Source of the DNA: Bacteroidales bacterium
GTDB lineage: Bacteria > Bacteroidota > Bacteroidia > Bacteroidales > Tenuifilaceae
NCBI GenBank assembly: GCA_013376985.1
Contig: JACABB010000021.1
Coordinates: forward strand, 69,327-93,326
Direction: 5' to 3'
DNA length: 24,000 bases
The position numbers and the translations under genes were made by a program. Position 1 is the stretch's first letter. Each line of letters begins with the position of its first letter. Below are positions 9,447 through 24,000 of the stretch, piece after piece. Under the pieces are notes generated by a model. The model did no database searches and was not told the origin of the DNA. It saw nothing but the letters and a program-made list of their open reading frames with translations.

Positions 9447-9498
9447 TTATCATTATAAATTGAAACAAATTTCACCCTATTTAGTAAACTGTCCATCA

Positions 9499-10266
9499 AT
9501 GAAACTTAATATTAAAAATCCACTCGTTTTTGTTGACCTCGAAACCACTGGTATTGATGTAATAAAAGATAGAATTGTTGAAATTGCTGTGCTTAAAATT
9601 CATGTTGATGGGAGGGAGGAACTAAAAATTAAAAGGGTAAACCCTGGAGTGCCAATTCCACCTGAAACGACTGCCATTCACGGTATTACTGATGAGGATG
9701 TAAAGAATGAGCCTTTGTTTAAGGAGGTGGCGAAATCATTGGCGAATTTTATCGAAGGATGTGATTTTGCAGGATTTAACTCAAATAAATTTGATTTTCC
9801 ATTACTTGCAGAAGAATTTCTTCGTGCTGGAGTTGATTTAGATCTTAGAAAACGTAAATTTATTGATGTTCAAACCATCTTTCATAAGATGGAAAAGAGG
9901 ACTCTGGGTGCGGCGCTTAAATTTTACTGTGATAAGGAGATAGAAAATGCGCATAGCGCAGGTGCCGATTCCTATGCAACCTATGAGGTACTTATGGCTC
10001 AACTAGATAAGTATAGTGATATTAAAAATGATGTCGAATTCCTTGCCGAATTTAGCGCTCAAACAAAAAATGTTGATTTTTTAGGAAGAATAATACTTGA
10101 TGAAAAGGGCGTTGAAGTTTTCAACTTTGGAAAGCACAAAGGCAAGTCGGTTGTTGAAATACTAGAAAAAGAACCTAGCTACTACGCATGGATGATGAAT
10201 GGCGAGTTTCCCCTATATACAAAGAAGGTTCTTACCAATATTTATTTGAAGATGAAGCAGAAGTGA
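9499..10266 (+). CDS. DEDDh 3'-5' exonuclease (DnaQ/epsilon-like)
   Basis: Exo I motif VFVDLETTG, Exo II FAGFNSNKFDFPLL and Exo III HSAGADSYATYEV. The track start is a TTG at 9460; ATG 9499 (MKLNIKN) is preferred. Confidence 0.8.
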   Translation: MKLNIKNPLVFVDLETTGIDVIKDRIVEIAVLKIHVDGREELKIKRVNPGVPIPPETTAIHGITDEDVKNEPLFKEVAKSLANFIEGCDFAGFNSNKFDFPLLAEEFLRAGVDLDLRKRKFIDVQTIFHKMEKRTLGAALKFYCDKEIENAHSAGADSYATYEVLMAQLDKYSDIKNDVEFLAEFSAQTKNVDFLGRIILDEKGVEVFNFGKHKGKSVVEILEKEPSYYAWMMNGEFPLYTKKVLTNIYLKMKQK

Positions 10267-10323
10267 TATTCCAAAGTATAATATTCAAAACTACAAAACA
10301 TCATTACCTAACTAAATACATAT

Positions 10324-10358
10324 AAACAATCCCATCTTTTAAGAGATTGGGATTGTTT
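10324..10358 (+). terminator. stem-loop downstream of the exonuclease gene
   Basis: aaacaatccc...gggattgttt forms a 10-bp stem, with an extra atct/agat extension that includes a bulge. The trailing sequence is only weakly T-rich. Confidence 0.5.
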
Positions 10359-10517
10359 AATTAACGCGAGTTCGATGTAAGTATAACATACTGATCCTAA
10401 GCATGGTGTTAGATTGTTACTTTGTCATGCTGAACGAAGTGAAGCATCTAGTCTTTAGGCGATTAGATCCTTCACTTCGCTCAGGATGACACCTTACATC
10501 GAACTCACGTTAATTAA
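10357..10517. repeat. 161-bp MITE-like hairpin repeat, copy 1 (left flank of peptide island)
   Basis: About 25-bp terminal inverted repeats: ttaattaacgcgagttcgatgtaag / cttacatcgaactcacgttaattaa. An internal hairpin is gtcatgctgaacgaagtgaagcatc...gatccttcacttcgctcaggatgac. About 85% identical by eye to 20158-20318, in the same orientation. Confidence 0.8.
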
Positions 10518-10523
10518 TTACAA

Positions 10524-10724
10524 TTAGGTACTTTGAAACAAAGTTTTGCCACAAGTACATGAACCGCCTGTACAAGCACCACCAGTGCAAGCACCGCCTG
10601 TGCAATCACCACCCCAACACAAACCACCACTGCAATCACCACCTTTAATTTCACCCATTTCTTTAGCGTCCATTAACTGTGATAAGTTCAAGCTTTCACT
10701 TACAAAATCTTGAAGTTTTTTCAT
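10524..10724 (-). CDS. RiPP precursor A1: 29-aa GG leader plus 37-aa Cys/Gly-rich core (7 Cys, CxGGx pentads)
   Basis: MKKLQDFVSESLNLSQLMDAKEMGEIKGG | DCSGGLCWGGDCTGGACTGGACTGGSCTCGKTLFQST. It has a double-glycine leader, lies next to an rSAM/SPASM gene and shares a cluster with a C39-ABC exporter. Confidence 0.85.
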   Translation of the reverse strand: MKKLQDFVSESLNLSQLMDAKEMGEIKGGDCSGGLCWGGDCTGGACTGGACTGGSCTCGKTLFQST

Positions 10725-10750
10725 GATTAAAACATATTAAATTTATTTTT

Positions 10751-10810
10751 ACAGTAACCATTACCCATTACTGCTTGGATTTTCCTGAATCGAGGCACAG
10801 GAGAGCCATA
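10751..10810 (-). promoter_or_regulatory. conserved 5' leader element, copy 1 (upstream of precursor A1)
   Basis: About 60 nt, starting 26 nt upstream of the ATG and shared with three other precursors. It contains a CAGUAAU-GGGUAAUG-GUUACUG hairpin on the minus strand. Confidence 0.7.
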
Positions 10811-10852
10811 GAGTATGAAAATATTGATAGATATTAACTTCCTGAGAAAATA

Positions 10853-12376
10853 TTAAATTATTGGATTAATAAATGCTGGTGCTTTTTTGCAGCGAGGATC
10901 AGGGTAATCCCAATTTTCGTCGCCATATACTTTTAGCACATCTGCCCAACATTTGTTTGGATATTTATTGTAGCATTCATCTAGTAGTTCACAATTTTTG
11001 CAGGGGCTTTCATCCCTAAAATCATCTTTGGTAAAATTAACCCATTTCAGGGCTGCTGGGGAATTCCATATCTCTTCAATTGAATTTTCGAGGATGTTTC
11101 CGATAATAAACTTGTTTTTCCAGTACATCTGTTCGCAGATTGTCACATTTCCATCCGGTAGAATGTAAATATGCGAGCGATTTGCAGAGCAGGATGCTCC
11201 TGGAAAAGATTTACTTCCTTGTTCTGCAGTAAAAAATCCTCTATTAATGTAGGATTTATCGATCCCAATTTTAAGTGTATTTAGTTTATTCAACTCATCG
11301 AGATATATGAAAGCATCATCCCTACTTTGTTTGTCGAGTTTTATTTTTTCAAATTCGTTCGAAGTGTACAGCGAGCGATATGCAATGCGAACCTGCCACT
11401 CTTTAATTCTTTTCAAAGTTGACAAATAGTTGTACATCTCGCTTAGTTCTTCTTTGCCAGAATTTAAATTTGTTAGTACGCTGATTACATGGTAGGGTAG
11501 TTCATATTTATCCATCAACTCCAAGGTGTGCTTCATTTTATCGATATAACTTTTTTGTACACCTAGTAGTTGGTTTATTTTTTCCTTTGTTATTAAGTCG
11601 AAGGATATTTGGAAAGTTAAATTTGGGAATTGCTTCAATTTTTTAATATCATTTTCATTGATTGGAATTTTTGTGGATATTAAATTTCTATCGTAACCAG
11701 AGTTACTTAATTCACATAACAACTCGTACCATCTATTGTATAGGAAAAATTCCCCTCCTCCAAGATTTATATTTTTAATTCTTAGTTTTTTAGATTCACT
11801 AATAATTTCTTTAATTCTACTAAAGGGAATTGAACATATAATGTTTTTTTCTCTATCTGCATAACAATATAAACAGTTTGTAACGCATTGATTAGTTAAC
11901 ATAACTGTAATTGAAGAAGGGCAGTGGAATAATCTTTGTGTTTCAAAATCAAGTTCTTGAAAAACGAAATCTTCTGGCTTGTATTCATAATTAATTTTTA
12001 ATTTTTCGGAGTATTCTATTATTATTTTTTTCGGAAAACTAAAAACTACCCCATCATATTCAGTATGGATTATCTCCTCATTTTCAATATAAGGACTTAT
12101 AATCTTTTCTGCTTCAAGTTTACTTAGATCAAGAAATTCACTCAAATTTTCTAAAGCCTGCTCTAGGGTTGTGGGAGTGGAGAAAAAAGAAAGGAGCATT
12201 GCTTGAATAGGGTGGATTATAGAAAACCACCCTTTACTTGATGTTTCACATTGATTTATACTATTATATGTAATTAACGTTCGTTTAATATCATTTTTAT
12301 AATTATAATCTGGATTTAAAACATATTTTTTACCCATATAATTTCTGAAATTATTTTGTGAATAAGATCCTCGCAT
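10853..12376 (-). CDS. radical SAM / SPASM-domain peptide maturase, paralog 1
   Basis: CX3CX2C cluster in TNQCVTNCLYCYAD and GGGE SAM-binding motif (NLGGGEFFLY). A C-terminal Cys-rich SPASM-like region reads GASCSANR...ICEQ...CKNCELLDECYNKYPNKCW...DPRCKK. An N-terminal extension of about 150 aa is compatible with a peptide-recognition (RRE/PqqD-like) domain. An alternative start lies at 12337 (MGKKYVLNPDY). Confidence 0.9.
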   Translation of the reverse strand: MRGSYSQNNFRNYMGKKYVLNPDYNYKNDIKRTLITYNSINQCETSSKGWFSIIHPIQAMLLSFFSTPTTLEQALENLSEFLDLSKLEAEKIISPYIENEEIIHTEYDGVVFSFPKKIIIEYSEKLKINYEYKPEDFVFQELDFETQRLFHCPSSITVMLTNQCVTNCLYCYADREKNIICSIPFSRIKEIISESKKLRIKNINLGGGEFFLYNRWYELLCELSNSGYDRNLISTKIPINENDIKKLKQFPNLTFQISFDLITKEKINQLLGVQKSYIDKMKHTLELMDKYELPYHVISVLTNLNSGKEELSEMYNYLSTLKRIKEWQVRIAYRSLYTSNEFEKIKLDKQSRDDAFIYLDELNKLNTLKIGIDKSYINRGFFTAEQGSKSFPGASCSANRSHIYILPDGNVTICEQMYWKNKFIIGNILENSIEEIWNSPAALKWVNFTKDDFRDESPCKNCELLDECYNKYPNKCWADVLKVYGDENWDYPDPRCKKAPAFINPII

Positions 12377-12434
12377 TAGAAAGTCTTTGAGTTATTTAAA
12401 TTCCTAATCATTTAATAACTATTTTGAAATAAAA

Positions 12435-12467
12435 CTATTCCATACATTGAATTGTTGTATGGAATAG
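12435..12467 (-). terminator. stem-loop between precursor B and rSAM paralog 1 (terminator/attenuator)
   Basis: Perfect 12-bp stem ctattccataca / tgtatggaatag with a 9-nt loop, followed on the minus strand by UUUUAUUU. Confidence 0.65.
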
Positions 12468-12497
12468 CAATTTAGATGACAGTGAGATTGTTTGTTA

Positions 12498-12674
12498 TTA
12501 AATAATTCCACCTTCACATAAACCACCTGCACATATACCACCTTCGCAATAAACTCTGATTGTATCTTTACAATCCACAACTATTTTACCACCTGTGATT
12601 TCATCTAACTCTTTTGATTCCATTAAACTTGAAACATCAAGTTTTAATTTTGATAAATCTTTTAATTTTTTCAT
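12498..12674 (-). CDS. RiPP precursor B, absent from ORF track: 29-aa GG leader plus 29-aa core (4 Cys)
   Basis: Hand translation of the minus strand from ATG 12674 to TAA 12498 gives MKKLKDLSKLKLDVSSLMESKELDEITGG | KIVVDCKDTIRVYCEGGICAGGLCEGGII. At 58 aa it falls below the length of every ORF listed in the track. It is preceded by the conserved leader element. Confidence 0.78.
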   Translation of the reverse strand: MKKLKDLSKLKLDVSSLMESKELDEITGGKIVVDCKDTIRVYCEGGICAGGLCEGGII

Positions 12675-12699
12675 AAATAAGTTTTATTTAATTTGTTTT

Positions 12700-12757
12700 C
12701 AGTAACCTTTCCCCATTACTGTTTGGGGTTTCCTGATTTGAGGCGCAGGAGAGCCTT
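12700..12757 (-). promoter_or_regulatory. conserved 5' leader element, copy 2 (upstream of precursor B)
   Basis: Minus-strand sequence: UUAAGGCUCUCCUGCGCCUCAAAUCAGGAAACCCCAAACAGUAAUGGGGAAAGGUUACUG, 25 nt before the ATG. Confidence 0.7.
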
Positions 12758-12800
12758 AAAGTATATAAATATTGATAAATGTTCATTTTTTGACTAAATG

Positions 12801-14291
12801 CTAAATTATTGGATTAATAAATGCTGGTGCTTTTTTGCAGCGAGGATCAGGGTAATCCCAATTTTCGTCGCCATATACTTTTAGAACATCTGCCCAACAT
12901 TTATTTGGATATTTATTGTAGCATTCATCAAGTAGTTCGCAGTTTTTACAAGCACTTTCATCTCTGAAATCTTCTTTTTTCATATTTACCCATTTTAATG
13001 AGGCTGCTGAGTTCCATACTTCCTCGATTGAATTCTCAAGTATGTTACCAATGATAAACCTTTTTTTCCAGTACATTTGTTCGCAAATTGTTACATTCCC
13101 TTCGGGGAGAATATACATATGCGAACGATTTGCTGAGCATGATGAACCTAAAAATGATTTACTGCCATTCTCCGCTGTAAAATATCCTTTTTCAATAACA
13201 GATTTATCAATTGAAACTTTCAAGGTTTTAAGATTATTTAATTCCTCTAAATGCGCAAATACGTCTTGCCTGTCCTGTTCTTGAAGTTTTATACTTTCAA
13301 ATTCTGTAGAGCTATATAATGATCGATAGGCGATACGAGCCTGCCATTCTTTAATGTTTTTTAGCGTTGATAAATAGCTATGCATTTCGGTTAACTCTTC
13401 TTTGTTAGAGTTTAAGTTGGTGAGTACGCTTATTACATGATAAGAAAGACCATGCTTATCCATCAATTCCAAAGTGTGCTTCATCTTTTCAACATAACTC
13501 CCAGGTACATCCAATATCTTATTTATTTTTTGTTCTGAGAGAGAATCAAATGAGAATTGGTAGGTTAGATAAGGGAATTGTTTAAGTTTAATTATATCAT
13601 TTTCGCTTATGGGTACTTTTGTTGAAATAAAATTTTTATAAAATCCATACTTATACAACTCTGATAATAATTCGTACCAATTTTTATATAAAAAGAATTC
13701 ACCTCCACCAATCTGAATACTTTTAATTTTTAAATTTTTGGCTTCTTTAATTAATTCCTTTATTCGTTCGAACGGAATTGTGCATGTTACCTCTTGGCTT
13801 TTATCCGCATAGCAGTATATGCAATTTGTTACGCAGCGATTGGTTACCATAATGGTTATTACGGCGGGACTCTGGTTTAATCTTACCGAATCAAAATCCA
13901 ACTCTTTATAAACAAATTCATCAGGTTTGTAAGTATATAAAATCTTTAAATTTTCGTGATATTTAATAATGATTTGTTTTGGAAACTTGAAGTTATGTCC
14001 ATTATATTCGGTGAAAATAGCCTCTTTATTCTCTATAAAAGGTTTAATTATATTGAGAGTTTCCTCTTTACTTAAACTCAAAAATTCGCTCAAATCTTCA
14101 ACCGCTTTGTCAATACTAATAGGGTTAGAGAAAAATGAGAGAATCATTGCTTGAACAGGGTGAATAACGGATACCCACTCTGTATTGGTTTGCTCACATT
14201 GAGCATCTGAATTTGCAATGATTATACTTCTTTTTATGTCATTTTTGAAGTTATAATCTGGATTTAAAACATAAAGATCCTCGCTTATCAT
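12801..14291 (-). CDS. radical SAM / SPASM-domain peptide maturase, paralog 2
   Basis: Same architecture as paralog 1: TNRCVTNCIYCYAD, IGGGEFFLY and a SPASM-like Cys-rich C-terminus. The last 49 aa are identical to paralog 1. Confidence 0.9.
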   Translation of the reverse strand: MISEDLYVLNPDYNFKNDIKRSIIIANSDAQCEQTNTEWVSVIHPVQAMILSFFSNPISIDKAVEDLSEFLSLSKEETLNIIKPFIENKEAIFTEYNGHNFKFPKQIIIKYHENLKILYTYKPDEFVYKELDFDSVRLNQSPAVITIMVTNRCVTNCIYCYADKSQEVTCTIPFERIKELIKEAKNLKIKSIQIGGGEFFLYKNWYELLSELYKYGFYKNFISTKVPISENDIIKLKQFPYLTYQFSFDSLSEQKINKILDVPGSYVEKMKHTLELMDKHGLSYHVISVLTNLNSNKEELTEMHSYLSTLKNIKEWQARIAYRSLYSSTEFESIKLQEQDRQDVFAHLEELNNLKTLKVSIDKSVIEKGYFTAENGSKSFLGSSCSANRSHMYILPEGNVTICEQMYWKKRFIIGNILENSIEEVWNSAASLKWVNMKKEDFRDESACKNCELLDECYNKYPNKCWADVLKVYGDENWDYPDPRCKKAPAFINPII

Positions 14292-14370
14292 AAGTAGATT
14301 TATTAAAATAAATGTTGAAATAAAGAAGTTGATTATAAAAGTTTTAAAACAATTTGAAAAAAATAATAAA

Positions 14371-14402
14371 ACAATCCTATCCCTTGAAAGGAATAGGATT
14401 GT
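14371..14402 (-). terminator. stem-loop between precursor A2 and rSAM paralog 2 (terminator/attenuator)
   Basis: acaatcctat...ataggattgt forms a 10-bp stem, extendable with one bulge. On the minus strand it is followed by UUUAUUAUUUUUUU. Confidence 0.7.
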
Positions 14403-14425
14403 CTAATAACGATATCCAACAATGA

Positions 14426-14653
14426 TTAGTTGGCCATCTCTTCTTCGGCAAAAGTATTCTTGCCAAGAGTGCATTCGCCGCATGTGCATGAACCACATGT
14501 GCATGAACCACCTGTGCATGCACCACCTGTACAATCACCCCCCCAGCACAAACCACCACTACAATCACCACCTTTAATTTCGCTCATTTCTTTAGCGTTC
14601 ATTAACTGTGATAAGTTCAAGTCTTCGCTTACAAAATCTTGAAGTTTTTTCAT
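14426..14653 (-). CDS. RiPP precursor A2: 29-aa GG leader plus 46-aa Cys/Gly-rich core (9 Cys)
   Basis: MKKLQDFVSEDLNLSQLMNAKEMSEIKGG | DCSGGLCWGGDCTGGACTGGSCTCGSCTCGECTLGKNTFAEEEMAN. The leader is near-identical to A1. Confidence 0.85.
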   Translation of the reverse strand: MKKLQDFVSEDLNLSQLMNAKEMSEIKGGDCSGGLCWGGDCTGGACTGGSCTCGSCTCGECTLGKNTFAEEEMAN

Positions 14654-14678
14654 GGTTAAAACAGATTAATTTTTTTTT

Positions 14679-14738
14679 ACAGTAACCTTTCCCCATTACT
14701 GTTTGGAGTTTCCTGATTCGAGGCGCAGGAGAGCCTTA
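14679..14738 (-). promoter_or_regulatory. conserved 5' leader element, copy 3 (upstream of precursor A2)
   Basis: Minus-strand sequence: CUAAGGCUCUCCUGCGCCUCGAAUCAGGAAACUCCAAACAGUAAUGGGGAAAGGUUACUGU. Confidence 0.7.
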
Positions 14739-15343
14739 GATTATCCTGTAAAATATTATAGGGCTTTTGTTTTTTGCGCTAATAATTCTAATAATAGAAT
14801 TTAGAGCATGCAGTCCATGAAAATTTTTAGAGTTAGTTCAAGTATTAAATGTAAATGTTTTATATTCTGTTGCATTTTACCCTTTGATCATATTATTAAG
14901 AGTAAAACTAGTTGTGATTATTCAATAAACATCAATCATTCAAGGAACAGACAATGCCGTGATTTTTTAAACAAGTGTTTTTACACAGCAAGGCACTTAT
15001 ATTCACAGGTATTAAAAATAAAAATATAAAAAAATATTTGATAAATAAAAAAATAGTACAACTTAAATGGTTACTAAAATGTAAACGATATATACATTAT
15101 CGTGCATATGTCATTTACATTTTCTAAGTATAGGAAATTTCTATAATATTGATTTTTAAAAAATGTAGTTGTGATTTTTTATTTTCTTTAAAAGAGTTTA
15201 TTTAGCGGGTGTTAATCATATAAATTAGTTTTTTAAAATCAATAAATCTCCATTTTAAATTTTTATATACAGTTTAGATATTCATTGTTTAATCTGATAT
15301 TCAATGGATTTTTTATTCAAAAAAATATTTTAAGGACGATTAG

Positions 15344-15369
15344 CTACCCTGTCAATTTTGACAGGGTAG
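15344..15369 (-). terminator. perfect hairpin downstream of precursor C
   Basis: ctaccctgtcaa tt ttgacagggtag is a 12-bp palindrome. A T-run on the minus strand begins only about 15-20 nt later, so terminator function is uncertain. Confidence 0.45.
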
Positions 15370-15533
15370 AAAAACTAACTCAAAAAATTTTATTTTGTAT
15401 CCAAAGGAAAAATGAATTGAAGTCAAATAATGTTAAAGGACTTATTTCTTAAGAACTCCTATTTATGAATAAATAATTAAAACAAATATTAGAATTATTT
15501 AGATAAGGAATTTCCTTTGGGTATGAGGGATTA

Positions 15534-15743
15534 TTACCAAACAAAACGACCAAGACCATCTGTACACATTCCACCAACACAGCCCCAGAAACCATTATGA
15601 CAGTCATTAACATCTGTTGTTAATCCCTGATAGCATGAAAAAAATCCATTCTCACATCCACCTTGAATGTCTCTCATCTCCTTAGCATTCATTAATTGTG
15701 ATAAGTCCAAATTTTCACTTGTAAAATCTTTAAGTTTTTTCAT
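15534..15743 (-). CDS. RiPP precursor C: 29-aa GG leader plus 40-aa aromatic/Cys core (5 Cys)
   Basis: MKKLKDFTSENLDLSQLMNAKEMRDIQGG | CENGFFSCYQGLTTDVNDCHNGFWGCVGGMCTDGLGRFVW. It has the same leader family and the same upstream element but a different core. Confidence 0.8.
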   Translation of the reverse strand: MKKLKDFTSENLDLSQLMNAKEMRDIQGGCENGFFSCYQGLTTDVNDCHNGFWGCVGGMCTDGLGRFVW

Positions 15744-15769
15744 AAGTAAATCATATTAAATTTAGTTTT

Positions 15770-15829
15770 ACAGTAACCTTTCCCCGTTACTGTTTGGGGT
15801 TTCCTGATTTAAGGTACAGGTGAACCTTA
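15770..15829 (-). promoter_or_regulatory. conserved 5' leader element, copy 4 (upstream of precursor C)
   Basis: Minus-strand sequence: CUAAGGUUCACCUGUACCUUAAAUCAGGAAACCCCAAACAGUAACGGGGAAAGGUUACUGU. Confidence 0.7.
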
Positions 15830-16472
15830 GAGGATGCCGTAAAATTTTATTGAACATTTACTTTATGTGTTAACTATTACAATTTATTATGCAAACATAT
15901 GTAATAAGTTGCATGTCAATATGTAAAATATTGATTTAAATATATGTATATAAGCGTTTTGTGATTTTTTATAAATTTCGGTTTTAAAACAACTTCTAAT
16001 CATAAATTAATACCATGTAAAATAATGATTATGTTTTTTTAGTGAAATGTAATTCGCAACTATTCTATAAACTGAGTTATTCAATGAACAAGTGAAAATG
16101 GAGGATTGATGAAGATTTTTTTCAATCAATAAGTATTTTATTATACAGTAAAGCGCTCATTTTGTTAAAAATAAATATAAAAGTATAAAATATTTATGAT
16201 AAGTAAAATATGTAATGTGGCAAAAAGTAGCATAATTTATGTGATTTTCGAAATATGAATTATATATACGCAATAATATATGTGTAATTTGTATTTAATT
16301 GGCGTAGGCAATGTCTATAATATTGATTTTTAAAAGATGAGGTTATGAGACGATTTTAATATTTGGTATTTTAGCCTTGATTATTATCAATGATTAAAAT
16401 AATTCATATACATTGATTTTATCGATTTTGAAACTATCCTTCGTTTATTAATCTTGGATATAACACTTCTTT

Positions 16473-19853: not shown

Positions 19854-20009
19854 TTAGCAAGCAGCAGCACCAACAGCAAAACCAATTAAAGCTGCAAATG
19901 GTCCCCAATGAGCACCTACAATAGTAGCAGCAGCTACACATGTCCAATAATCATCACCCTCAAGACCACCTTGAACTTTGCTCATTTCGTTAAAATCTAA
20001 AGTTTTCAT
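19854..20009 (-). CDS. class-II-bacteriocin-like peptide, absent from ORF track: 15-aa GG leader plus 36-aa hydrophobic core
   Basis: Hand translation of the minus strand from ATG 20009 to TAA 19854 gives MKTLDFNEMSKVQGG | LEGDDYWTCVAAATIVGAHWGPFAALIGFAVGAAAC. It has a short double-glycine leader, GxxxG-type motifs and two Cys residues. Confidence 0.65.
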   Translation of the reverse strand: MKTLDFNEMSKVQGGLEGDDYWTCVAAATIVGAHWGPFAALIGFAVGAAAC

Positions 20010-20157
20010 GTTAGTTTATTTTAGTTTGTTTCCCTACTCTATTTATAAAGGCTTTTCGGAATCCGCCTATTGTTTTTGCGCGCAAACAATATTTTGATTT
20101 AGATTATCCAATTTGCTTATTAGCATACTTACAAACAACTATTAATCCTAATACTTG

Positions 20158-20318
20158 TTAATTAACGTGAACTCGATCTAAGCATAACATCTTGATTGCT
20201 AGTATAGCATTAGATTGTTGCTTTGTCATGCTGAACGAAGTGAAGCATCTCGTCTTTAGATAACTAGATCCTTCGCTTCGCTCAGGATGACACCTTACAT
20301 TGAACTCACGTTAATTAA
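20158..20318. repeat. 161-bp MITE-like hairpin repeat, copy 2 (right flank of peptide island)
   Basis: Same length, same orientation and same ttaattaacg...cgttaattaa termini as 10357-10517. The internal gtcatgctgaacgaagtgaagcatc...cttcgcttcgctcaggatgac hairpin is present. Confidence 0.8.
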
Positions 20319-20485
20319 GAAATAGAATATCAAGTGTGAATTGTTAGCATGTTAAACATCAACAATATTAGGCCATTCAACTTTAATTGATTTTAACAGG
20401 TGTTCCATTTATTTGTACTATTATTCCATTGAATAGATATATTTGCATGTCAATTAACTACATAATCATTAAAATCTTTGAGAAT

Positions 20486-23434
20486 ATGAATCTGGTTAGG
20501 AAGAAACTACTAACAACTTTGTTATTAGCATTAATTGCTGTTGGCGCATTATCTCAGAATGCGATAGATTCACTTAAAAACGCTTTGGAAAAATCATCCA
20601 GCGATACTTCGAAAATTATTACAATGCTTAGTCTGGCTGAAAATTATTTCTATACAGATGAAAACAAGTCGCGAGAGTATTTTAATAACGCTAAAACATT
20701 GTTGGATAAGGTTCAATTTAAGAACGGAACTGCTTACTCTTATTATGTTAATGGTTATTTACTTAAAAATACACCTGCTGCGGCATTGGAGAGTTTTAAC
20801 AAATCTCTAATAATTTATACCGAGCTAAAGAATAATCCAGGAATAGCCAAAGCTAACTTAGCAATTGGTAGTACATATATTAATCAATCTAAATTGGATA
20901 AGGGAATGCCTTACTATTCTACTGCCTTGCAGATTTATCAATCATTAAATGATAGAAAAGGCATTGGAGTATGTTACTCTGCTTTAGGCAATATTTATGC
21001 TCATCAGGGAAAATTTAAAATGGCTCTTGATTATAACAAAAAAGCGTTGAAGTACCTTACATACCAAAGTTATGCATATTTTAATGAGCATGTAAGTATT
21101 GCAAATAATTATTCAGCTTTGGGTGAGGCGAAAATGGCTTTACTTTACTATGATAGTCTATTGAATACTTTAAAGAATAAGAATTATTTTGATATCCTTT
21201 CGAATGTTTATGCCAATTTAGGAGCTATTTACTCAGCATCTCAGAACTACAATAAAGCAAAGCAGTGCTATAAATCATCCATAGAATATGGGACAAAAGG
21301 AAAAAACGATTATTACTCCATTGTTGCATGTTTAACAATGTCGGATTTATATATTAACCTAAACCAGCCAGACTCAGTAATTAATTTACTTAAAAAGAAC
21401 TCGCCAACCATTATTCGGTATAAATCAAAAACTTTTTTGTCTTATTACTACCAATTTTTATCCTCAGCCTATGAAGTTAAAGGCGATATAAACTCTGCCC
21501 TTAAATATTATAAATCCTTTAAAAGCGCAGAAGATTCTTTGAATATCGAACAATCTAATCAACGTCTTTACGAGCTACAAACCTCATTGGATGTTGAGAA
21601 AAAGGATAAAGAGATTGACCTACTAAACAAGGAGAATCAATATAAATCACTTCAATTATCTAAACAGAGGATTATGATTTTACTTATTCTGCTGTCAACG
21701 GTATTATTCTTAGTTATGGCATTTGTTTTATACACTCGTTTCCGATTAAAGCACAAGCTGGTTGGTATGTTGGAAAATAAGAATAGAGAGATTGAGCAAC
21801 AGCAGCAGGAAATTATGGCAATGAACGATATGCTTGGAAAGCAGAATGAAAGTTTGCTGGAATTGGACGATATGAAATCCCGATTCTTTACCAACATATC
21901 ACATGAGTTCCGAACACCTTTATCGCTTATAATAGGACCTTTAACATCTATGTTGGAGGAATCCAACAACAAGGAAGCGCAAAATGAATTCCGACTCATG
22001 CTAAAACATGCAAATAGCCTATTAAATCTTATAAACCAATTGCTCGATTTATCTAAACTTCAAAAAGCAAGTCTTAATTTACAACTTTCGTATTACGATA
22101 TAAATACATTTTTAAATATACTTATTGATTCATTTTCTGGGCGTGCAAAAGATCTATCCATTGCACTTACCTATAATTCAAATCCTTTGCCTTTGTTTGT
22201 TTGGTTTGATAGAGATAAGGTGGGGACAATTGTATTTAATATCATTTCGAATGCATTAAAGCATACCGATAAAGGAGGTTTTGTAGAGGTTTCTTTGGCC
22301 AGAATAGGAGAGGATGATAATTATGTTGAAATTATGATTAGCGATAATGGAATAGGTATAGAATCGCATGAGCTAAAGAATATTTTTGAACCCTTTTATC
22401 AATCCAACGCAACAATAAATCGAAAGATTGAAGGCAGTGGTATTGGATTAGCTTTAGCTAAGGAGTTGGTTGAGCTACATGGAGGTGAAATTTCGGTGAA
22501 GAGCGAGGCAGGAAAAGGGGCTCAGTTTACAATAGTTTTAGCCGTGAATAAGCATCTTTTACCATTCGCAGAGATAATGTCCGATGAAGATCAGAAAGTT
22601 GATGAAATCGATAGATTTCCAAAACTTCATGAATTCGATTTAGGTGGCGAAGTCGAACCTAAAATAATAAAGGGAGAGACAACAATTCTTGTTGTTGAGG
22701 ATAATGATGATATGAGAGATTACATATCAAAATCGTTAGCGCAGGATTATCAAATTATAGTGGCAGTAAATGGTAGGGAAGGGTTTGATAAAGCAATGGA
22801 GGTATCGCCAGACCTTATAATTACGGATGTTATGATGCCCGAAATGAATGGGTATGAAATGACAAAGCTGATTAAAAACAATCAGCAAACAAGTCATATT
22901 CCTGTAATCATTCTTACTGCAAAAGCCTCCGAGGAGAGTAAGATTGAAGGACTTGAGGCCGCTGCTGATGATTATTTAGTTAAGCCCTTTAATAAAGCAG
23001 AGTTGCTGTTGAGGATTAGAAATACAATATCAAATCGACAAAAGCTAAGGGATAAGTTTCAGAAATCTATCACAGTAAACCCTTCGGAAGTAACAGCAAC
23101 ATCATTAGATGAACAGTTTTTAACAAAAGCACTTCAAATTATTGAAAATCATTTAGCAGATGCCGAGTTTTCCGTGAATGATTTTTGCGATGAAATTGGA
23201 ATGAGTAAGACCAACGTGTATAGAAAACTCAAGGCCTTAACCAATCAATCCTTTACAGAATTTATGCGTTGCATAAGGTTAAAACGGGCAGCATCATTGC
23301 TAGTAATGAAATCAGGCAACTTAACTGAAATTGCTTACGAAACAGGATTTTCCAACCTATCCTACTTCTCCAGAAGCTTTAAGGAACAGTTTGGGGTAAG
23401 TCCATCGGAGTATACAACAAAAGTAAAGAATTGA
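20486..23434 (+). CDS. hybrid two-component regulator: TPR sensor region, TM, histidine kinase, receiver, AraC-type HTH
   Basis: Signal/anchor MNLVRKKLLTTLLLALIAVGALS, TPR-like repeats and a TM helix (IMILLILLSTVLFLVMAFVLY). HisKA box FFTNISHEFRTPL, HATPase G-boxes (DNGIGI, GSGIGLA) and receiver (ILVVEDNDDM...DVMMPEMNG...KPF). The C-terminal AraC HTH reads GFSNLSYFSRSFKEQFGVSPSEY. The track start at 20387 is a TTG; ATG 20486 is preferred. Confidence 0.85.
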   Translation: MNLVRKKLLTTLLLALIAVGALSQNAIDSLKNALEKSSSDTSKIITMLSLAENYFYTDENKSREYFNNAKTLLDKVQFKNGTAYSYYVNGYLLKNTPAAALESFNKSLIIYTELKNNPGIAKANLAIGSTYINQSKLDKGMPYYSTALQIYQSLNDRKGIGVCYSALGNIYAHQGKFKMALDYNKKALKYLTYQSYAYFNEHVSIANNYSALGEAKMALLYYDSLLNTLKNKNYFDILSNVYANLGAIYSASQNYNKAKQCYKSSIEYGTKGKNDYYSIVACLTMSDLYINLNQPDSVINLLKKNSPTIIRYKSKTFLSYYYQFLSSAYEVKGDINSALKYYKSFKSAEDSLNIEQSNQRLYELQTSLDVEKKDKEIDLLNKENQYKSLQLSKQRIMILLILLSTVLFLVMAFVLYTRFRLKHKLVGMLENKNREIEQQQQEIMAMNDMLGKQNESLLELDDMKSRFFTNISHEFRTPLSLIIGPLTSMLEESNNKEAQNEFRLMLKHANSLLNLINQLLDLSKLQKASLNLQLSYYDINTFLNILIDSFSGRAKDLSIALTYNSNPLPLFVWFDRDKVGTIVFNIISNALKHTDKGGFVEVSLARIGEDDNYVEIMISDNGIGIESHELKNIFEPFYQSNATINRKIEGSGIGLALAKELVELHGGEISVKSEAGKGAQFTIVLAVNKHLLPFAEIMSDEDQKVDEIDRFPKLHEFDLGGEVEPKIIKGETTILVVEDNDDMRDYISKSLAQDYQIIVAVNGREGFDKAMEVSPDLIITDVMMPEMNGYEMTKLIKNNQQTSHIPVIILTAKASEESKIEGLEAAADDYLVKPFNKAELLLRIRNTISNRQKLRDKFQKSITVNPSEVTATSLDEQFLTKALQIIENHLADAEFSVNDFCDEIGMSKTNVYRKLKALTNQSFTEFMRCIRLKRAASLLVMKSGNLTEIAYETGFSNLSYFSRSFKEQFGVSPSEYTTKVKN

Positions 23435-23570: not shown

Positions 23571-23699
23571 TAACGCAAGTTTGATGTAAGTATAATATAT
23601 TGATCCTAAGTATAGCATTAGATTGTTGCTTGTCATGCTGAACGAAGTGAAGCATCTCGTCTTTAGATAACTAGATCCTTCGCTCCGCTCAGGATGACA
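23571..23699. repeat. partial third copy of the MITE-like hairpin repeat
   Basis: taacgcaagtttgatgtaagtataat...gtcatgctgaacgaagtgaagcatctcgtctttagataactagatccttcgctccgctcaggatgac. The right terminal inverted repeat is missing and is replaced by the 155-bp tandem array. Confidence 0.7.
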
Positions 23700-24000
23700 A
23701 TGGATTCATTATGGAATTCACCATTATTCAGGAAAGGGGTTGACGTTTCTAGAGCATACTGTTTCTTGTCATGCTGAACGGAGTGAAATCCGAAGGATTC
23801 GCTGAAAGCAACCATCTTGTCTTTAGAAGATCCTTCGCTTCGCTCAGGATGACAATGGATTCATTATGGAATTCACCATTATTCAGGAAAGGGGTTGACG
23901 TTTCTAGAGCATACTGTTTCTTGTCATGCTGAACGGAGTGAAATCCGAAGGATTCGCTGAAAGCAACCATCTTGTCTTTAGAAGATCCTTCGCTTCGCTC
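23700..24000. repeat. tandem repeat, 155-bp period, at least 1.9 units, truncated by window end
   Basis: The sequence from 23701 (tggattcattatggaattcacc...) recurs exactly from 23856. All 145 comparable bases are identical. Each unit contains a gtcatgctgaacggagtgaa...cttcgcttcgctcaggatgac hairpin. Confidence 0.85.

Follow-up and report, generated by a model that had tools for sequence, protein, structure and literature searches.

The 24,000-nt stretch of DNA analysed here (the window) comes from a Bacteroidales metagenome-assembled genome and encodes on its minus strand four short GG-leader peptide precursors, each preceded by a conserved leader element of about 60 bases. This leader most likely folds into two small RNA pseudoknots, and it is best described as something new, a compacted double-pseudoknot variant that is related to the known motif DUF805b but fails the sequence-model test of that family. 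DUF805b (Rfam RF02914, clan CL00115) is a candidate cis-regulatory motif of Bacteroidota, and the four copies look like an unrecognised, compacted relative of this orphan motif. We consider it probable that the element is a transcribed cis-acting leader, in which a compacted DUF805b-type pseudoknot and a second pseudoknot act on precursor translation or mRNA stability. Of the interpretations weighed below a structured RNA is the best supported, short of proof. An initial annotation, made from the letters of the window, had already proposed a structured RNA leader on the sense strand; that part stands, as the helices fit the variation and DUF805b is found in orthologous position, but the second pseudoknot had been missed.

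The same annotation had described an element of ~60 nt in four copies, each 25-27 nt before an ATG, which we could confirm. On the minus strand the four copies are in register and align without gaps across 72 columns, and our own covariance model built from them (R2) scores 94-99 bits at 10750-10821, 12698-12769, 14678-14749 and 15769-15840. Scanning the remainder of the window with R2 yielded nothing comparable; two weak matches at 23699 and 23854 lie inside a 155-nt tandem repeat, lack the knot and were rejected. The conserved core (alignment columns 12-70) and the A/U-rich unstructured spacers between element and ATG are located as follows:

10752..10810, minus strand: leader element copy 1 (R2 93.7 bits; pair counts)
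12700..12758, minus strand: leader element copy 2 (R2 98.9 bits), same four helices, PK1 at 12756-12731, PK2 at 12728-12700
14680..14738, minus strand: leader element copy 3 (R2 98.7 bits; pair counts), PK1 at 14736-14711, PK2 at 14708-14680
15771..15829, minus strand: leader element copy 4 (R2 95.9 bits), PK1 at 15827-15802, PK2 at 15799-15771
10725..10751, minus strand: spacer of copy 1 (27 nt)
12675-12699, minus strand: equivalent spacer of copy 2 (25 nt)
14654-14679, minus strand: equivalent spacer of copy 3 (26 nt)
15744-15770, minus strand: equivalent spacer of copy 4 (27 nt)

PK1 and PK2 denote the first and second pseudoknot. Counted from the last paired base, the distance to the ATG is 27, 25, 26 and 27 nt in copies 1, 2, 3 and 4, and copies 1 and 2 lie only ~40 nt behind the stop codon of a maturase gene. 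The mean pairwise identity among the four copies amounts to 86.5% in the core, compared with 74.8% in the DNA coding for the leader peptide, 72.5% in the spacer, 59.8% in the upstream DNA and 55.7% in the core-peptide DNA, so that the element is indeed better conserved than the core-coding DNA, as had been claimed.

Four helices were tested: AGGC/GCCU (columns 14-17 with 26-29), UCCUG/CAGGA (20-24 with 35-39), CAGUAAY/GUUACUG (49-55 with 64-70) and YYCC/GGGK (42-45 with 56-59). The last of these, whose GGGK sits in the hairpin loop, is a pairing additional to the three that had been noticed before. Taken together, the helices make up a pair of neighbouring H-type pseudoknots whose linkers are short and A-rich. 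PK1 would consist of the stem AGGC/GCCU, a loop of 2 nt, UCCUG and 1 nt, an A-rich linker of 5 nt and CAGGA; PK2 would start with YYCC and AAA, followed by the hairpin CAGUAAY/GUUACUG, the loop of which pairs through GGGK back to YYCC. The loop lengths (L1 2 nt, L2 1 nt and L3 5 nt in PK1; L1 3 nt, L2 0 nt and L3 4 nt in PK2) are sterically ordinary for H-type pseudoknots. In copy 1 the helices are placed as follows:

10808-10805 with 10796-10793, minus strand: PK1 stem, UGGC with GCCU, its outer U:U being the only unpaired cell of this stem
10802-10798 with 10787-10783, minus strand: PK1 knot, UCCUG with CAGGA
10780-10777 with 10766-10763, minus strand: PK2 stem 1, AUCC with GGGU, carrying an A:U compensation (columns 42-59)
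10773-10767 with 10758-10752, minus strand: PK2 hairpin, CAGUAAU with GUUACUG

Over four helices and four copies, 78 of 80 cells are paired (97.5%), and pairing falls to 31-49% when the partners are slid by 1-3 columns. Six of the eight variable columns inside helices preserve the pairing. Two pairs are doubly compensated, one going from C:G to U:A in copy 4 and the other from C:G to A:U in copy 1; G:U pairs, which work on the sense strand only, absorb three more changes. Taken singly, the helices are stable, with energies of -1.7 to -8.8 kcal/mol. The hairpin CAGUAAY-N8-GUUACUG pointed out by the annotation is present in all four copies, closed by U:G in copies 1-3 and by C:G in copy 4, and the mini-stem GGC/GCC of copies 1-3 recurs as the compensatory GGU/ACC in copy 4, where it can be extended to UAAGGU/ACCUUA (compensation in columns 17-26). 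The suggested UCCUG/CAGGA knot held up in part, being complementary in copies 1-3 and compatible with all variation, whereas copy 4 has only CCUG/CAGG; with 19 of 20 cells paired it is almost invariant and shows no covariation. Taken alone, the window suggests this fold rather than proves it.

The annotation had further regarded the element as absent before the fifth GG-leader gene of the window, a 51-aa open reading frame (ORF). This needs correction, as a canonical DUF805b RNA is located there:

20031..20069, minus strand: canonical DUF805b RNA (Rfam RF02914), 45.1 bits versus a gathering score of 35.6, 47.9 bits in our own DUF805b model (R1), 21 nt before the ATG of the 51-aa ORF

It has in common with the four copies the AGGC/GCCU stem, a UCC core in the loop and the tail end GG..AAAC (GGAAAC). 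With this motif counted, each of the five GG-leader genes of the window has a structured leader. When 5.8 billion proteins were searched with a precursor profile, only four clusters came back, two of which are the window's own (P0002 and P0003). As the precursor family is very rare, we followed the radical SAM/SPASM maturase of the cluster instead to reach homologous leaders, and gathered related loci (numbered with L) from genomes, assemblies and metagenomes. Rfam DUF805b was found above the gathering score (40-50 bits) before homologous precursors in L010, L011, L013 (two genes) and L016, that is in every locus with a maturase of 60-71% identity and upstream DNA present, and R1 added L024, L025, L031, L036, L039 (two), L021, L004, L019 (two) and L028. 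Overall, the loci with DUF805b before the orthologous precursors have maturases of 40-74% identity. The 18 motifs end 15-24 nt before the ATG (counted from the end of the 41-position model; 20-29 nt from knot to ATG), and the ORF that follows encodes a short GG-leader or similar peptide in 17 of the 18 cases, the exception being a 387-aa signal-peptide protein in L011.

We aligned the 18 DUF805b sites (L004-L039 and the window; alignment A6) and derived from them a loop-tail pseudoknot, in which gCC of the loop is paired to GGc of the tail over three positions. This helix is 96.3% paired. The pair 13-41 occurs as G:C in 11 sequences, A:U in 3, U:G in 2 and once each as G:U and U:A, with none unpaired; the pair 15-39 is C:G in 13 and U:A in 3, with 2 mismatches. 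For the whole structure the covariation score is 0.57 against 0.18 in shuffles (0 of 500 reaching it), and no more than 0.13 with the partners slid; the stem covaries as well, in three of its four pairs. Judged from this alignment, DUF805b is an RNA pseudoknot with strongly covarying loop-tail pairing. Many of its unpaired nucleotides (loop CCGAAAA, tail AGAGUA) are nearly invariant across distant taxa.

In the sampled loci DUF805b is located almost exclusively before GG-leader peptide genes and not before the DUF805 proteins that gave the motif its name. Directly 5' of DUF805b we noticed an extra hairpin, ATTGTTT-N8-AAACAAT, in the window (20069-20090, minus strand), in L011 (~9481-9505) and twice in L013 (~1011-1035 and ~1556-1580). 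It shows a U:G wobble in one L013 copy. Since it contains TTTG, it may belong to a -7 promoter box or else form one more RNA stem.

The four copies resemble DUF805b in their orthologous position, directly before homologous GG-leader precursor genes and the window's 51-aa gene, in the 4-bp stem with consensus AGGC/GCCU (exact in copies 2 and 3, UGGC/GCCU with the outer U:U unpaired in copy 1, the compensatory AGGU/ACCU in copy 4), in a loop segment that could pair with a tail rich in purines to give a putative pseudoknot, and, for the element as a whole, in the A/U-rich gap of ~20-27 nt to the ATG. They differ in their dimensions, for which an intermediate, shortened form was found in relatives:

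Canonical DUF805b, 18 sites: loop 12 nt, linker 14-17 nt, knot 3 bp
Shortened form, L001, L008 and L020 (maturases 60-74% identical): loop 9-10 nt, linker ~8 nt, knot GCU/AGC
PK1 of the window, four copies: loop 8 nt, linker 5 nt, knot 5 bp

Instead of the conserved 12-nt loop GGAAgCCGAAAA the four copies carry the 8-nt loop UCUCCUGC, and the conserved tail AGAGUAGGcA is replaced by AAUCAGGAAAC. In addition, the second pseudoknot/hairpin of ~29 nt has been appended, which moves PK1 to ~55 nt from the ATG. Counted to the end of the complete element the distance to the ATG is 25-27 nt, but the DUF805b-like PK1 ends further off, at about 58-60 nt, because PK2 is interposed. Among the shortened forms, L001 scores 14 bits with R1, and a stem compensation (AAGG/CCUU to ACGG/CCGU) was observed. 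In more distant maturase clades with 42-44% identity (L022, L042 and L043), the leader of L022 (7560-7624) keeps the topology with unrelated sequence, a hairpin loop being able to pair to the tail as GGCUA/UAGCC, and L042 and L043 allow the same kind of pairing before their precursors with the sequence-unrelated AUCGAAA/UUUCGAU, with an A:U to G:U change. The topology thus appears to persist while the leader sequence turns over. PK1 would accordingly be a compacted descendant of the DUF805b leader pseudoknot, in which 8 nt remain of the 12-nt loop and 5 nt of the linker of 14-17 nt, and in which the knot has 5 bp instead of 3; PK2 would be a lineage-specific addition. As the four copies reach no score in the DUF805b models, this presumed descent rests on position, stem sequence and topology.

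A number of observations weigh against our reading. The Rfam 15 scan at E<=10 gave no DUF805b match at the four copies (gathering score 35.6), and R1 misses them even with filters off; the comparison with Rfam that the annotation had called for thus returned no family for the four copies, either at the gathering threshold or at E<=10. Of the covariance search it had also proposed, the model was built and recovers the four copies, but R2 found no copy in the 99 related loci. Likewise, a strict pattern of the long variant (CCTGNNCCTNNANTCAGGAAANNCCAANCAG) gave 0 matches in 241 million metagenome records. The hairpin/PK2 half is absent from the closest relatives L001 (74%), L008 and L020 and has no counterpart in any relative. 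In L018, with a maturase of 74% identity, the leader has decayed and most of the element is lost, so the fold is dispensable in some lineages. There are only four sequences, all from one genome, and their covariation is weak, with 40 of 500 shuffles reaching the observed values, a point that also bears on the candidate roles which the annotation had listed, and among which a cis-acting RNA is the reading we prefer. Minimum free energy z-scores of single copies are unremarkable (-0.65 to -1.36); they are uninformative here because nested folding is blind to pseudoknots. Copies 1-3 have no good -7 box upstream, and DUF805b itself is an orphan without experimentally known function.

The confinement of all copies to one genome, the absence of anything similar from the metagenome records and the related loci, the loss in L018 and the statistically modest covariation would all be expected if the block had no dedicated function, its similarity being due to cassette duplication and homogenisation by gene conversion and its helices being incidental. 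We consider this very unlikely. The tract of high identity corresponds exactly to the folded segment: between copies 2 and 3 the identity of 95% in the core drops to 56% in the spacer and to 62% in the DNA coding for the leader. As the conservation block matches the proposed fold, and most sharply so in this pair, the copies are not simply a recently duplicated cassette. The preserved pairing in most variable helix columns and the presence of a conserved, covarying RNA motif at the same position in relatives argue against it as well.

Primary-sigma promoters of Bacteroidetes are composed of a -33 TTTG and a -7 TAnnTTTG box (PMC7366714). On the minus strand between 10300 and 20400 we found only one perfect intergenic TAnnTTTG, 61 nt upstream of the core of copy 4:

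15892..15921, minus strand: candidate Bacteroidetes-type promoter of copy 4 (prediction), -7 box TATGTTTG at 15899-15892, TTG ~20 nt upstream

None of the four copies contains a TAnnTTTG -7 box inside or after the core. In L021, L039 and L011, perfect -7 boxes are located 26-51 nt upstream of DUF805b. The boxes upstream of copy 4 and of DUF805b would place the motifs inside transcripts, and from this arrangement the element appears to be transcribed. Copies 1 and 2 are served either by a polycistronic transcript or by weak, unrecognised promoters.

The lack of an obvious -7 box upstream of copies 1-3 would be explained if a promoter were nearby, that is if the element were a DNA operator/promoter module providing each precursor with its own regulated promoter, the inverted repeats CCTG..CAGG and CAGTAAY..GTTACTG being bound by a transcription factor such as the AraC-type hybrid encoded at 20387-23434. 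This hybrid histidine kinase/response regulator/AraC gene adjoins the cluster, and the hairpin corresponds to a palindrome of 7 bp around an 8-bp spacer, near-perfect overall and without mismatch in copy 4. Nevertheless such a module seems highly improbable to us. No TTTG or TAnnTTTG occurs at a conserved position inside or just downstream of the core. The variation obeys base-pairing rules including G:U, and YYCC/GGGK is compensated although it is not palindromic, neither of which is predicted for a protein-DNA site. The homologous DUF805b covaries and is accompanied by regulators of unrelated kinds (sigma-54 activator in L010, LytTR in L011, HTH_3 in L021/L022, the AraC hybrid in the window), which does not agree with a regulator-specific operator, and the 6-nt variation of its linker between stem and tail does not suit a promoter made of two boxes. 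RNA is therefore favoured over DNA because of covariation that includes sense-only G:U pairs, the non-palindromic compensation in YYCC/GGGK, and the perfect -7 box upstream instead of within or after the core.

Further candidates were tried and rejected. An intrinsic terminator or attenuator does not apply, as the hairpin has 2-3 G:C pairs, is followed by A-rich sequence without a U tract and was not detected by the terminator scan. ECF-sigma (GAAAC-N-GGT) and sigma-54 boxes are, by eye, not conserved in relatives, and their spacings are wrong or variable. An upstream ORF is not conserved, since copy 4 has ACG in place of the hairpin-loop ATG. A sigma-70 promoter scan gave no enrichment over shuffles, this model not being appropriate for Bacteroidota, and a match of the Rfam 'pan motif' to the other strand (20 bits, E=6) is due to chance.

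Bacteroidota mRNAs do not rely on Shine-Dalgarno sequences. Given the missing Shine-Dalgarno pairing in this phylum and the spacing between fold and AUG, we infer that the compact fold serves translation and mRNA stability. The element would be the transcribed 5' leader of each precursor mRNA and would act in cis as a folded RNA. Between the end of the fold and the AUG there are always 20-27 nt, A/U-rich and unstructured, as a landing zone. The fold could insulate and present this ribosome-binding zone, possibly as a standby platform for 30S/bS1, and could protect the upstream end of the short precursor message. Together with leaky terminators after the precursors this would result in a high and uniform output of precursors relative to maturases, even for copies 1 and 2. 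That a compact pseudoknot and a fixed A/U-rich gap of ~20-27 nt are kept across divergent leaders points to the fold, and not to particular nucleotides, as the functional unit.

Among known systems, a working model for the combination of pseudoknot and A/U-rich spacer is offered by the E. coli tisB +42 mRNA, where a 5' pseudoknot is required for S1/30S standby binding and translation (PMC7708055). There, too, the pseudoknot is near the 5' end of a small-peptide mRNA beside a single-stranded region; however, its sequence is unrelated, it belongs to another phylum and acts ~100 nt from a sequestered ribosome-binding site, and a standby role is proposed here by analogy. The 5' stabiliser stem-loops of bacteriocin and lantibiotic operons in Firmicutes are simple hairpins on processed, stable precursor transcripts. 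They resemble our element in standing directly before a short, highly expressed precursor gene and in the leaky terminator between precursor and enzyme genes, whereas the fold described here contains pseudoknots, stands at a fixed distance from the AUG and is found between cistrons as well. Small H-type pseudoknot aptamers are known from the preQ1-I, SAM-II and guanidine-III riboswitches, which comprise 30-60 nt with A-rich linkers and are located in the 5' untranslated region near the start codon.

Size, H-type topology, A-rich linkers and place near the start codon are shared by our element with these riboswitches, and the main rival at the RNA level is in fact a regulatory RNA that responds to a ligand or a protein, either like a riboswitch or as an autoregulatory binding site, in which a pseudoknot aptamer would switch precursor expression. 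All GG-leader genes of the cluster would then respond together, the possible signals being a metabolite, the mature peptide or an RNA-binding protein, and the pseudoknot leader is indeed present on all five of them in the window. Near-invariant unpaired nucleotides as in DUF805b are moreover typical of aptamers and protein sites. Exactly these nucleotides, however, are replaced in the window variant, in L022 and in the short forms, which keep only the topology, and this speaks against one specific ligand common to all. We saw no competing pairing by which the start region would be sequestered, no terminator follows the element, and there is no Shine-Dalgarno sequence to be sequestered in Bacteroidota. 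Against all of Rfam 15, including the known riboswitch and leader families, only chance-level matches (E>0.7) were obtained and none on the sense strand of the element, so that no riboswitch family matches. We regard such a sensing switch as quite unlikely.

Returning to the cis-acting leader, an extended form of this reading would have the Shine-Dalgarno-less Bacteroidota use the tandem-pseudoknot leader, and DUF805b likewise, as a dedicated device for ribosome recruitment or regulation. Translation of short GG-leader peptide mRNAs, internal cistrons included, would then be licensed through the binding of bS1/30S or of a signal-responsive factor to the compact pseudoknot. This is unlikely in our view; if it holds, it would give a function to the orphan DUF805/DUF805b clan and add a layer of post-transcriptional control to the production of bacteriocins and of ribosomally synthesised and post-translationally modified peptides (RiPPs). 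More generally, DUF805b becomes experimentally approachable since it is the standard leader before genes of GG-leader peptides, both RiPP precursors and a bacteriocin-like one, and also through its covarying pseudoknot and a topology that survives wholesale sequence replacement, as in the double-pseudoknot variant of the window. If the fold controls translation or stability, it would represent a rare defined cis-acting translation element in a phylum without Shine-Dalgarno sequences, and a practical part for RiPP precursor expression in Bacteroides hosts. Genome mining could use the motif as a flag for short precursor ORFs that are missed by gene callers, the precursor family being almost absent from protein databases.

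The genes of the cluster and its surroundings are arranged as follows:

10524..10724, minus strand: precursor 1, 66 aa, GG leader, Cys-rich core
10853-12376, minus strand: radical SAM/SPASM maturase (NCBIfam and Pfam matches)
12498..12674, minus strand: precursor 2, 58 aa, GG leader, Cys-rich, protein cluster P0003
12801-14291, minus strand: radical SAM/SPASM maturase (NCBIfam and Pfam matches)
14426..14653, minus strand: precursor 3, 75 aa, GG leader, Cys-rich, followed by a terminator-like hairpin at 14404-14369
15534..15743, minus strand: precursor 4, 69 aa, GG leader, Cys-rich, protein cluster P0002
16473-18572, minus strand: C39-peptidase ABC exporter
19854-20009, minus strand: 51-aa GG-leader bacteriocin-like ORF, Gly/Ala-rich, peptide MKTLDFNEMSKVQGG followed by LEGDDYWTC...
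20387-23434, divergent to the cluster: hybrid two-component AraC-type regulator (histidine kinase/response regulator/AraC)

Read along the minus strand, DUF805b and the 51-aa ORF are followed by a membrane protein, a thioredoxin-like protein, the C39 exporter, precursor 4, and precursor 3 with its hairpin; thereafter the two maturase genes are interleaved with precursors 2 and 1, in the order maturase (12801-14291), precursor 2, maturase (10853-12376), precursor 1. On the 3' side of each precursor gene a long A/U-rich hairpin is followed by a T-rich run (14369-14404, ~12430-12470 and ~10320-10355, minus strand). The terminator scan flagged only the first of them (14369-14404). These hairpins suggest attenuated read-through into the maturase genes.

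Among the related loci, the maturase closest to that of the window, with 77% identity across 70% of the query, belongs to L017 (485-1976), where it is broken into two ORFs and is likely a pseudogene; the DNA upstream of the precursor is cut off there at the contig end. On the Lentimicrobiaceae-like contig of L013 we noted an Acido-Lenti-1 RNA match (10100-10144, minus strand, 44 bits, gathering score 37), which adjoins a Y1 transposase gene. Finally, a 161-nt element is present in two direct copies with 86% identity (10357-10517 and 20158-20318), which bracket the peptide cluster exactly 9801 bp apart, each with the palindromic core TTGTCATGCTGAACGAAGTGAAGCATC...GATCCTTC..CTCAGGATGACA. A third, partial copy (23571-23699) is followed by a 155-nt tandem duplication of 99% identity (23673-23982). 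The 161-nt repeats resemble miniature inverted-repeat transposable elements or repetitive extragenic palindromic sequences, and the cassette formed by the cluster may be mobile or prone to recombination.

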